Assembly: GCF_057098645.1 (NCBI RefSeq)
Contig: NZ_CM169472.1
Reading direction: 5' to 3' (one strand)
DNA length: 64,000 nucleotides
Numbering within the stretch: position 1 is the first letter of the stretch; each line of letters starts with the position of its first letter. Position numbers and translations under genes: made by a program. The notes under the pieces were generated by a model. The model did no database searches, was not told where the DNA came from, and was given only the letters and a program-made list of their open reading frames with translations. This document shows, one piece after another, positions 7,666 to 8,684 of the stretch.

Positions 7666-7978
7666 GTCTGTCACTGGCCTTATTATTTATCGACCAAACC
7701 TGGCAATCTCATAAAGTTATAAAAATACGAGTATAATTTCACGCTAAATAAACACATTAATAGTTGAAAAGGATATCAGTTATTATCAACCAGAATCTTA
7801 CTCAGTCTATTAGTATTATCAGACTTATATTAGATCCTACAATATATTTAATTTGTATGCAGAATAGAGTGTTCACACCACATCTGGTATAGAAAAGCAC
7901 AGGCTAGCAAAAACCTGAATAACCCCGTACTTACGGAGTTATTCAGGTTAAAAATATCCATAACATCACTTCTGATTT

Positions 7979-8245
7979 TTATTGCTTACGACGGATATAA
8001 TTTCTCTGGTCAGCTACTAATATCATCATGCTCACGCGTTTAATCAAACTCGTGTTTCTCAAACGGACATCGCGGGACAATCTTCTGCTTCTCCCGGCGC
8101 ATTTTTTACCACCTTCGCTACCTGCATTTTGAGCGGAAGATCCGCTTTTTTCTGGCCCCCGCACATATGCAAGTCCAGTTTTAAATTTATCCTTTATTTC
8201 ATTCTGAAACAAACTGCTCATAATTTTCTCCAGTGGAACCTGCAT
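7979..8245 (-). CDS. hypothetical small basic protein (doubtful)
   Basis: 88 aa ORF in the LEE/backbone junction; a perfect 12-bp inverted repeat (about 7911-7947) lies just downstream on the same strand followed by a T-run. No recognisable family. Confidence 0.25.
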   Translation of the reverse strand: MQVPLEKIMSSLFQNEIKDKFKTGLAYVRGPEKSGSSAQNAGSEGGKKCAGRSRRLSRDVRLRNTSLIKRVSMMILVADQRNYIRRKQ

Positions 8246-8684
8246 CTCAGGGAGACATCACTACAGAATACTTCCCCTTATGCACTGATTTAATTTTGGT
8301 CATTTAGAATAACGGCCTGTAAAGTCTCAATGCAACAGATGGGTAACGCTATTATGAGGATCCTCGTCAGTAAATTACTGGCAAGGCACTCCGATAAATA
8401 AGAATAGGTTCCGCAACAACGTTATATGCAAATACCTCACGCTTCGGCTAGATTATCGCCGGCTCTGTTGACGAAATTATGGTTGAAATCTGGAGCTACC
8501 ACACGTTGTTCTGGCTGGCGATAGGGATGTTGGGTATTGCAATGATTTGCTTGCTGTTTATTAAAGATATTTAGCTCACCAGTCTGGGCTAAGAAAAATC
8601 GGCGTGGCGCAAACTGAGCCATCCTCGCCATTTTTGCTATCATGCCTGCATACATAAACGACAAAACAGTATGCAGAGGGAAAA

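Follow-up and report, generated by a model that had tools for sequence, protein, structure and literature searches.

The interval analysed here comprises the 1,019 nt at positions 7,666 to 8,684 of a 64-kb stretch of DNA (the window) and is bounded by rorf1, the terminal LEE gene on this side, and by yicL, the nearest intact backbone gene. The window is E. coli O157:H7 DNA, 100% identical to O157:H7 genomes, including that of strain PV15-279. Open reading frames (ORFs) and the PGAP annotation of an identical genome place espG and rorf1 immediately to the left of the junction and the backbone genes yicL-nlpA-yicS-nepI to its right, and both sources agree with the ends given in the initial annotation (rorf1 stop at 7665, yicL start at 8685). 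The product of the rorf1 ORF matches Pfam PF06977 (SdiA-regulated domain, E = 4e-53). The interval is the rorf1-side junction of a selC-inserted LEE (O157:H7/EPEC1 type), abutting yicL. From left to right, the pieces are rorf1 with a 155-nt LEE flank, a yjdJ relic, a tssB relic, a 61-nt setC scrap, the 175-nt end of setC and yicL, and frameshifts or stops were found in each of the coding relics (Table 1).

Table 1. Features of the rorf1-yicL junction, in window coordinates.
Feature	Positions	Strand	Basis
rorf1 (SdiA-regulated-domain protein), terminal LEE gene on this side	6847-7665	+	ORF list, PGAP, Pfam
LEE terminal non-coding sequence, common to other LEE lineages	7666-7820	+	Flank identities
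Deletion scar, joint 7820/7821 at TTATCA microhomology	7815-7826		Three-way alignment, annotations
Relic of non-coding region downstream of an E. albertii-like yjdJ	7821-8009	-	87% identity
Relic predicted intrinsic terminator of yjdJ	7907-7949	-	Inverted repeat, fold, conservation
88-aa ORF, fortuitous frame over tssB' and yjdJ' debris	7979-8245	-	ORF list, tblastn, shuffles
yjdJ' pseudogene, last ~37 codons (about aa 54-90), GNAT acetyltransferase	8010-8125	-	tblastn, nucleotide identity
yjdJ'/tssB' crossover patch	8117-8125	-	Overlapping BLAST ends, alignments to both parents
tssB' pseudogene, first ~41 codons, T6SS sheath small-subunit gene	8117-8221	-	tblastn, nucleotide identity
Relic of region upstream of tssB	8222-8341	-	BLAST against strain C5
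Internal setC scrap, K-12 setC nt 172-232	8342-8402	+	BLAST, tblastn
setC 3' pseudogene remnant, setC nt 1011-1185	8400-8574	+	Alignment, BLAST, tblastn, PGAP
Native setC-yicL intergenic region	8575-8684	+	Collinear with K-12, 1 mismatch (at 8615)
yicL, nearest intact backbone gene	8685-9608	+	ORF list, PGAP, K-12 comparison

Distribution of the junction and its backbone boundary

The closest known system is the selC-inserted LEE of EHEC O157:H7 (OI-148) and of EPEC O127:H6 strain E2348/69. The locus analysed here is the same as in both, with nothing different, and the E2348/69-type junction is 98.8-99% identical to the interval, with espG-rorf1, a truncated setC, yicL, and selC at the espF end. 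The same junction, counted as present in genomes holding at least 80% of it at 98-100% identity, was found in 383 of 5,426 complete E. coli genomes, every one with LEE at selC. All sampled selC-LEE lineages (O157:H7, O55:H7, O145, O127:H6 E2348/69 and other EPEC) carry the scar, and across six lineages its 1,019 nt differ by 10 substitutions and one indel. The presence of a ~99%-identical scar in the phylogenetically distant O157:H7, O145 and O127:H6 implies that the selC arrangement had a single origin and then spread together with its flanks.

As the initial annotation had stated, the window holds no tRNA-Sec; ARAGORN found no tRNA in the 64 kb. The selC gene is absent because the cut of the window excludes the espF/integrase end of the island. 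In PV15-279, tRNA-Sec (4,680,824-4,680,918; junction at 4,721,896) bounds the island at that opposite end, 32.6 kb to the left of window position 1, and collinearity with K-12 on the selC side stops 15 nt beyond selC. A selC 3' direct repeat, which the initial annotation had suggested looking for, was sought by short-query BLAST of the 3' half of selC, extended by 40 nt, in the junction and throughout the window. No such repeat, as would mark an attR, was found at the junction or elsewhere in the window; the matches were chance matches of 11 nt or less, with nothing beyond a 10-mer within 7600-8700.

The K-12 order is selC, setC and yicL: 636 nt separate selC from setC, an MFS sugar efflux transporter gene of 1,185 nt, and a further 110 nt separate setC from yicL. 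Alignment to K-12 rejected the reading that would make the interval simply the usual K-12 DNA preceding yicL and place setC elsewhere: the final 285 nt (8400-8684) are collinear with K-12, but K-12 has setC directly upstream of yicL, and beyond setC nt 172-232 and 1011-1185 no part of the K-12 selC-setC interval was found in the 64 kb, the selC-setC spacer being lost as well. The earlier description of setC as missing was correct for the first ~1,010 nt, which apart from the 61-nt piece are gone relative to K-12, but not for the last 175 nt, which remain. This 3' remnant is 96% identical to K-12 setC (52/57 identities by tblastn), contains an internal stop and is labelled by PGAP/RefSeq as a partial pseudogene ('MFS transporter, incomplete, internal stop'); its 11 mismatches in 150 nt lie within the 0-34 found locally in stretches of that length over yicL-nepI. 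The smaller scrap is 86.9% identical to K-12 setC over 61 nt (15/19 aa), and no E. coli genome offered a source closer than 86.9%. The setC codons left are ~58-76 and 338-394, the latter with the internal stop, and a full-length 394-codon ORF is absent.

The true backbone boundary is at 8400, where collinearity with K-12 begins. A GC shift at 7860-7950 had been taken to separate the AT-rich island from the backbone; the step itself is real, with GC climbing from ~0.29 to ~0.42 around 7800-8000, but it does not coincide with the boundary.

The LEE flank, the yjdJ relic and its hairpin

The LEE terminal flank matches that of the O111:H8 LEE at 94.6% identity as far as 7793, the point at which an IS interrupts the O111:H8 match, and that of the O103:H2 LEE at 78% identity as far as 7821. 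In O103:H2 and in the E. albertii-type LEE, rorf1 is followed by a hypothetical gene of ~0.84 kb (no Pfam match), which is missing here.

Across the joint, 7816-8125 is 87% identical to both SCPM-O-B-7615 and the E. albertii type strain. The coding part of this relic matches YjdJ aa 60-90 with 23/31 identities (tblastn), is 87% identical at the nucleotide level to the E. albertii-like gene and 73-79% to E. coli yjdJ, and carries an in-frame stop and a 2-nt deletion. An intact yjdJ of ~90 codons is absent, the Pfam Acetyltransf_CG score being 15.7 bits against a cut-off of 30. SCPM-O-B-7615, which shares 92% backbone identity with E. coli and 95.5% with the E. albertii type strain, has the order yjdC-pheU-int-...-YeeU-CbtA-DUF5983-DUF957-DUF4942'-IS5-espF...rorf1-hyp-yjdJ-yjdI-dcuS, and the type strain shows the same hyp/yjdJ adjacency. 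In these E. albertii-type genomes LEE lies at pheU, with the rorf1 end and one extra gene abutting the yjdJ terminator and yjdJ. An LEE at pheU abutting yjdJ is also described for 'E. coli' O8:H- strain 3431-4/86 in a passage of PMC3408504 that cites Muller et al. 2009. The pheU-inserted LEE of E. albertii and O8:H- 3431-4/86 shares with the present junction the rorf1 end, the region downstream of yjdJ, the hairpin, the opposite-strand yjdJ and the absence of the cad-lysU block. It differs in that the locus here is selC, yjdJ is reduced to its last ~116 nt, and rorf1 and yjdJ are no longer separated by the 0.84-kb hypothetical gene, which is deleted; between the LEE genes here and the E. albertii-like ones, identity is only ~76%.

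The perfect 12-bp inverted repeat first noticed in the initial annotation (AACCTGAATAAC/GTTATTCAGGTT) is present, within 18-nt arms at 7912-7929 and 7932-7949, and a perfect repeat of this length arose in only 2 of 300 dinucleotide shuffles. As minus-strand RNA, the hairpin is predicted to fold into a 17-bp stem with a 4-nt loop (-28.8 kcal/mol, z = -5.7), with UUUUUG directly after the stem on that strand, as in the sequence of an intrinsic terminator; its single imperfect position forms a G.U pair in the minus-strand RNA but a C.A mismatch on the plus strand. E. albertii retains the core stem and is the only GTDB species representative in which the hairpin pattern was found. The element has the same stem-loop and U-run as Rho-independent terminators, located ~60 nt past the yjdJ stop codon, and differs from them in that the gene it would have terminated is now a 37-codon stump. 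The hairpin is predicted to be the relic terminator of yjdJ; it may still halt minus-strand read-through, though nothing demands it. A simple terminator scanner, whose loop and stem rules differ, missed this hairpin, and its two terminator calls lie elsewhere.

Expression of a non-coding RNA from the relic block is improbable, and so is retention of the hairpin as a working terminator or as an insulator that separates LEE from the backbone. All six lineages compared have an intact and strong hairpin, with no substitutions in 7907-7949, and its one imperfect position pairs on the minus strand only, but the conservation is uninformative because the whole 1 kb, obvious junk included, is ~99% conserved across lineages. 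Furthermore, Rfam 15 returned no match at E up to 1 on either strand of 7400-8900, no promoter was predicted, and no sRNA is placed here in the O157 sRNA literature searched; in sRNA reviews, sRNA350 maps to the cesF 3' UTR and EvrS to CP-933N.

The tssB relic, the crossover patch and the 88-aa ORF

The tssB relic was recognised by tblastn as MSSLFQNEI plus 22/37 identities to TssB aa 11-47, and at the nucleotide level it is 77-80% identical to the tssB genes of strains C5 and A30. A frameshifting 8-nt deletion and a stop disrupt it; once corrected for frame, its peptide matches positions 6-46 of Pfam T6SS_VipA with 17.6 bits, under the cut-off of 24, and by ORF content and Pfam gathering score an intact TssB/VipA gene of ~165 codons is absent at the locus. 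The BLAST match to strain C5 extends 121 nt past the tssB start codon. On the minus strand of this upstream relic (8222-8341) a consensus scan predicted no sigma-70-like promoter; the scan returned three weak promoter-like sites that were not above shuffles, none of them upstream of the tssB relic. The relic was compared with genomes filed as E. coli, among which the closest source was baboon strain A30, at 80%.

Mid-yjdJ is fused to mid-tssB in head-to-tail order, through a crossover patch that reads GCAGGTAGC here, GCTGGTTGC in tssB and GCTGGTGGC in yjdJ. Short homologies occur at the three joints of the scar, namely TTATCA, GCTGGTNGC and a 3-nt overlap. A head-to-tail order could be mimicked by independent capture of unrelated DNA scraps.

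The 88-aa basic ORF to which the initial annotation had drawn attention is present, but it is a frame of chance length through pseudogene debris: when the 1,019 nt were dinucleotide-shuffled, 16% of the shuffles contained an ORF of at least 88 aa, and the product has no Pfam match. The ORF is in frame over the first 9 tssB codons and then runs out of frame through the tssB and yjdJ fragments, an out-of-frame reading that accounts for its basic composition. That it is nevertheless a real small gene, with transcription starting in the former upstream region of tssB and stopping at the 7949-7907 hairpin, is very improbable. The ORF is open in O157:H7 and O145, its start lies 8 codons ahead of the former tssB start codon and behind a former promoter region, and ~30 nt after its end the same strand carries a strong hairpin resembling an intrinsic terminator. 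Against this, no promoter-like site is predicted upstream, and a 1-nt deletion at 8102 breaks the ORF, truncating and altering its product, in E2348/69, 382634_2f, EC12 and dog EPEC (4 of 6 lineages); PGAP omits the ORF and calls another frame of 35 aa, which is marked as frameshifted in the deletion-bearing strains. With a frame that is not conserved and a length not beyond chance, the 88-aa ORF is, as judged from its sequence, not a gene.

Origin of the scar at selC

The pheU island of E. coli A30 contains a T6SS whose tssB gene lies 29 kb to the left of yjdJ and shares its strand, and a T6SS is likewise located in the pheU island of EAEC 042 (PMC2808357). Compared with these islands, the relic corresponds to the first gene of a tssB-tssC-tssK-tssL-OmpA-Hcp-TssH type cluster, of which ~105 nt of coding and 120 nt of upstream sequence are left here at 77-80% identity, with no intact T6SS gene. 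No T6SS was found in the pheU island of the E. albertii-like SCPM-O-B-7615, and a T6SS-bearing pheU island, LEE and yjdJ occurred together in no genome examined. On its espF side, the O157 selC island carries a YeeU'-CbtA-DUF5983-DUF957-DUF4942' module that is 89% identical to the pheU-side one. YeeU/CbtA modules are common on many tRNA-linked islands, and their synteny is thus weak evidence.

We propose, with a probability of roughly three in four, that the interval represents a recombination scar, now decayed and without demonstrable function, produced through relocation of LEE from pheU to selC. Since the E. albertii-type pheU-LEE directly abuts the yjdJ terminator and yjdJ, the O157-type LEE would carry a piece of its older pheU neighbourhood (yjdJ). 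A segment extending from tssB through the distal modules of the island and LEE to yjdJ would have been circularly excised or tandemly duplicated at pheU, since either event, and not a simple deletion, is expected to give a head-to-tail yjdJ'/tssB' joint. Its entry into the selC locus would have followed, probably through recombination with an island already resident there, and subsequent deletions would have trimmed the segment down to setC. The ancestral arrangement is a reconstruction whose precursor was not observed among the genomes examined, and the true donor of the relics appears to be unsampled, the best extant relatives being only 87% (yjdJ) and 77-80% (tssB) identical.

Unrelated filler would be an unlikely source of the yjdJ-like, tssB-like and setC scraps. 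Under that explanation each was captured singly by illegitimate recombination at selC, and, equally unlikely, the scraps would be uninformative on an earlier pheU location or a circular intermediate. It would fit the separate occurrence of T6SS and of LEE with yjdJ at pheU in the extant genomes examined and the modest identities to extant relatives (77-87%), and the setC 172-232 scrap shows that small orphan fragments do occur here. However, an unbroken ~190 nt of non-coding sequence links the yjdJ relic to the LEE end, in the order and orientation of the E. albertii-type arrangement, from which the sole difference is a clean one-gene deletion at a 6-nt microhomology. In addition, both foreign relics derive from genes that occupy the same strand of the pheU locus, and the espF side of the island bears the same module that precedes LEE at pheU.

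Within the proposed relocation, the joint at 8117-8125 can tentatively, at somewhat less than even odds, be read as the preserved closure point of a circular or tandem intermediate that came from an E. albertii-like pheU locus and recombined into a resident E. coli selC island. The segment may in that case have run from the T6SS edge through distal CP4-like modules and LEE to the 3' end of yjdJ. If this is true, O157:H7 and EPEC1 genomes would hold physical evidence of the ancestral LEE site (pheU, beside yjdJ), and a microhomology-mediated, integrase-independent route to selC would be in evidence.

The junction is ordinary and already known, and it carries a modest evolutionary fossil; known LEE function is unchanged by these findings. 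Movement of LEE among pheU, pheV and selC has been argued chiefly from phylogenies and insertion-site surveys. The displaced yjdJ piece on the LEE end, present in every selC-LEE lineage sampled, adds independent structural support for a pheU-first history, and the topology of the joint suggests a concrete mechanism of relocation. A passage of PMC3408504 citing Rumer et al. gives pheU as the ancestral E. coli LEE site. In the literature searched for yjdJ, yicK or setC together with LEE, only the same paper was found, which in the passage concerned names yjdJ for the pheU-inserted O8:H- LEE and not for a selC LEE. The present analysis contributes an interpretation, piece by piece, of the 735 bp that separate rorf1 from the setC remnant; the proper annotation of the interval would be three pseudogene relics (setC', tssB' and yjdJ') and a relic terminator, rather than 'no setC' or a hypothetical protein. 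The RefSeq annotation of these 735 bp consists of a single 35-aa 'hypothetical protein'.

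Composition of the rorf1-yicL junction

The 1,019 nt between rorf1, at the end of the LEE, and yicL were compared with K-12, and positions 7666-8341 were divided into pieces by sensitive BLAST against 5,426 complete E. coli genomes, with confirmation by local BLAST and tblastn. The initial annotation had placed the end of rorf1 and the start of yicL correctly.

Features of the rorf1-yicL junction, in window positions
Feature	Position	Strand	Evidence or closest match
rorf1	6847-7665	+	ORF list, in accord with PGAP
LEE flank	7666-7820		94.6% to O111:H8 LEE up to 7793 (cut there by IS); 78% to O103:H2 LEE up to 7821
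yjdJ relic and downstream region	7816-8125	-	87% to SCPM-O-B-7615 yjdJ-downstream region and last 118 nt of yjdJ
Hairpin	7907-7949	-	
88-aa ORF	7979-8245	-	
tssB relic and upstream region	8117-8341		77-80% to first 113 nt of tssB and 121 nt upstream, strains C5 and A30
setC internal piece	8342-8402		setC nt 172-232, 87% (BLAST, tblastn); directly left of 3' remnant
setC 3' remnant	8400-8574		final 175 nt of setC; 96% identity to K-12; 52/57 aa; contains stop (tblastn)
yicL	8685-9608	+	ORF list, in accord with PGAP

K-12 carries, in order, yicJ, selC, a rhuM scrap, setC (1,185 nt) and, after 110 nt, yicL, so the interval is not simply the normal K-12 sequence upstream of yicL. Collinearity with K-12 began at 8400, equivalent to setC nt 1011 (alignment and BLAST), which identifies the following 175 nt as the end of setC. 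The gene had been reported missing; it persists as this remnant, already marked by RefSeq, and as the 61-nt internal piece, for which no E. coli setC gene gave a match better than 86.9%. None of the remaining K-12 selC-setC interval was found in the 64-kb window. A rise in GC content around 7800-8000 was confirmed, but the island boundary drawn from it at 7860-7950 was not supported, K-12 collinearity starting only at 8400. Divergence from K-12 across nlpA, yicS and nepI was very uneven (0-34 mismatches per 150 nt; window 9750-9899, 10650-10799 and 11100-11400), a pattern that suggests recombination patches in the backbone right of the island.

No tRNA was detected in the 64-kb window by ARAGORN. 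The absence of tRNA-Sec was correctly noted, but the significance given to it was not supported: selC lies at the opposite end of the island (4,680,824-4,680,918 in E. coli O157:H7 PV15-279) and the window starts 32.6 kb to its right. In PV15-279, tRNA-Sec is followed by an integrase, ISEc31, a truncated YeeU antitoxin gene, CbtA, DUF5983, DUF957, a DUF4942 pseudogene, an IS3 scrap and espF; collinearity of O157 with K-12 on this side stops 15 nt past selC. A direct repeat of the selC 3' end, suggested initially as a check, was searched for, and no copy was present at the right junction.

The coding part of the yjdJ relic was only 73-79% identical to ordinary E. coli yjdJ, and its translation matched YjdJ aa 60-90 at 23/31 positions, interrupted by an in-frame stop (tblastn). 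The tssB relic encodes MSSLFQNEI; past an 8-nt deletion, the frame matches TssB aa 11-47 at 22/37 positions and contains a stop. The frame-corrected peptide matched Pfam T6SS_VipA (profile 6-46) and Acetyltransf_CG (50-75), in each case with a score under the cut-off, as gene stumps would be expected to give. The LEE of O111:H8 strain 8B (L008 4129-4467), 97% identical to that of O157 over espG-rorf1, is cut by IS remnants 128 nt past rorf1 and continues with nleE and nleB, so the sequence beyond was lost in that lineage.

Distribution and coding potential

Window 7600-8750 was 100% identical in PV15-279 and many other O157:H7 genomes, where PGAP annotates espG, an SdiA-regulated-domain protein (rorf1), a 35-aa hypothetical protein, a partial "MFS transporter" pseudogene (flagged as incomplete with an internal stop), yicL, nlpA, yicS and nepI. 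The junction (at least 80% of its length, 98-100% identity) was present in 383 of the 5,426 complete E. coli genomes, including O157:H7, O55:H7, O145, O127:H6 E2348/69 and assorted EPEC from humans, dogs, monkey and soil. Across 6847-9600 in six lineages, about 1% of sites differed, in the scar and flanking genes alike.

The perfect 12-bp inverted repeat described initially is real and lies within 18-nt arms (7912-7929 and 7932-7949); a perfect 12-bp repeat was reached in only 2/300 dinucleotide shuffles. The minus-strand RNA was predicted to fold into a 17-bp stem closed by a 4-nt loop, with UUUUUG next to it on the 3' side (-28.8 kcal/mol, z = -5.7). The sole imperfect stem position forms G.U in this RNA; on the plus strand it is mismatched (C.A). 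Situated about 60 nt past the yjdJ stop and on the yjdJ strand, the hairpin keeps its core stem in the aligned E. albertii-like sequence. When one genome per bacterial species was scanned for the hairpin pattern, the sole match was the E. albertii type strain, again beside yjdJ. By position and fold, the hairpin is a predicted relic of the yjdJ terminator, and minus-strand read-through may still be ended there.

The 88-aa ORF exists in the ORF list, but the possible significance raised for it was not supported, since an ORF of at least 88 aa arose in 16% of shuffled versions of the 1,019 nt and its frame is not conserved. Beginning 8 codons ahead of the former tssB start, it shares the tssB frame for 9 codons and is then out of register with the rest of the tssB relic and the whole yjdJ relic, continuing beyond the yjdJ stop to 7979; no Pfam match was found for it. 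A 1-nt deletion at 8102 truncates it in E2348/69, 382634_2f, EC12 and a dog EPEC. Within the T-run at 8097-8102, O157:H7 and O145 have one T more than these strains; with the extra T the ORF stays open in O157, and the deletion brings the tssB and yjdJ relic frames into register (50-letter peptide). The PGAP 35-aa protein is a different frame on the same debris, frameshifted per PGAP in strains with the deletion. Within the junction, no Rfam family, no predicted promoter for the relic unit and no reading frame conserved across lineages was found, and the sRNA literature searched describes no sRNA at this site; nothing indicates a present function.

Counterparts at the pheU locus

SCPM-O-B-7615 (NZ_CP144926.1) is assigned to E. 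coli in RefSeq. Near pheU (tRNA-Phe), its backbone shared about 92% identity with E. coli A30 and 95.5% with the E. albertii type strain, and its LEE was only 76% identical to that of O157 over espG-rorf1; the strain is thus probably E. albertii-like and misassigned. Its genes run in the order dsbD, yjdC, pheU, integrase, a ~49-kb island ending in YeeU-CbtA-DUF5983-DUF957-DUF4942', IS5, then the LEE from espF to espG and rorf1, a 291-aa hypothetical gene, yjdJ(-), yjdI(-) and dcuS. The cadCBA-lysU block is missing, as it is beside the pheU-inserted LEE of O8:H- 3431-4/86, which groups with E. albertii (PMC3408504).

In a three-way alignment, O157 tracks the LEE flank to TTATCA and resumes exactly past TTATCA in the yjdJ-downstream region, the hypothetical gene of the O103:H2 and SCPM-O-B-7615 flanks being missing between the two motifs. 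O157 thus has the LEE/yjdJ junction of the E. albertii type with one gene removed. This gene (278-291 aa; no Pfam match) directly follows rorf1 in O103:H2 PV16-126 (L010 5206-6042) and in the E. albertii-type LEE of SCPM-O-B-7615 (L006 5081-5956), is cleanly deleted from the O157/EPEC1-type LEE (window 7820/7821), and appears to be a conserved LEE-flank gene.

The E. coli tssB closest to the relic was that of baboon strain A30, whose ~85-kb island between pheU and cadC holds a minus-strand tssB-tssC-tssK-tssL-OmpA-Hcp-TssH cluster with tssB as its rightmost gene. To the right follow DUF4222, a GTPase, antirestriction, YeeU, CbtA, DUF5983, DUF4942 and ParDE genes, then cadCBA, dtpC, lysU, ghoTS and yjdJ(-). 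The pheU island of EAEC 042 also bears a T6SS (PMC2808357).

Proposed history of the scar

The two foreign relics trace to pheU-locus genes on the same strand, with tssB left of yjdJ, which bracket the place of the LEE in E. albertii-type genomes. The window sequence passes head-to-tail from the middle of yjdJ into the middle of tssB, the right-hand gene running back into the left-hand gene, with the crossover in a 9-nt patch (tssB GCTGGTTGC, yjdJ GCTGGTGGC, window GCAGGTAGC). A simple deletion between tssB and yjdJ was considered and rejected, as it would yield the reverse chimera; the joint seen is exactly what would result if the segment between the two genes were excised as a circle or duplicated in tandem.

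Because of the same-strand pheU-locus relics, the head-to-tail joint, the 9-nt patch and, weakly, the espF-side module, we propose that a pheU-locus segment with the LEE underwent circularisation or duplication through microhomology-mediated recombination and, after transfer, entered a selC island already in place by recombination. Later deletions would have trimmed it, one of them joining the tssB upstream region to setC nt 172 and another joining setC nt 232 to nt 1011. The relics were only 77-87% identical to extant relatives, and no precursor carrying T6SS, LEE and yjdJ together was found. The LEE/selC junction of O157:H7 and E2348/69 is among the most studied island borders; resolving its other 735 bp into yjdJ and tssB relics with head-to-tail topology is a modest addition, no prior description of either having been found in the accessible literature.

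The YeeU'-CbtA-DUF5983-DUF957-DUF4942' modules on the espF side of the O157 island and before the LEE at pheU were 89% identical, which weakly favors a pheU origin, such modules being common. The "prophage-like" selC-espF part in O157 (L011 9115-14631, outside the window) is the distal module of a CP4-like integrative island, truncated by ISEc31 beside the integrase. On the selC side, the integrase/CbtA module of O157 is missing from E2348/69, whereas the IS3 scrap before espF is common to both (L021 6124-6439).
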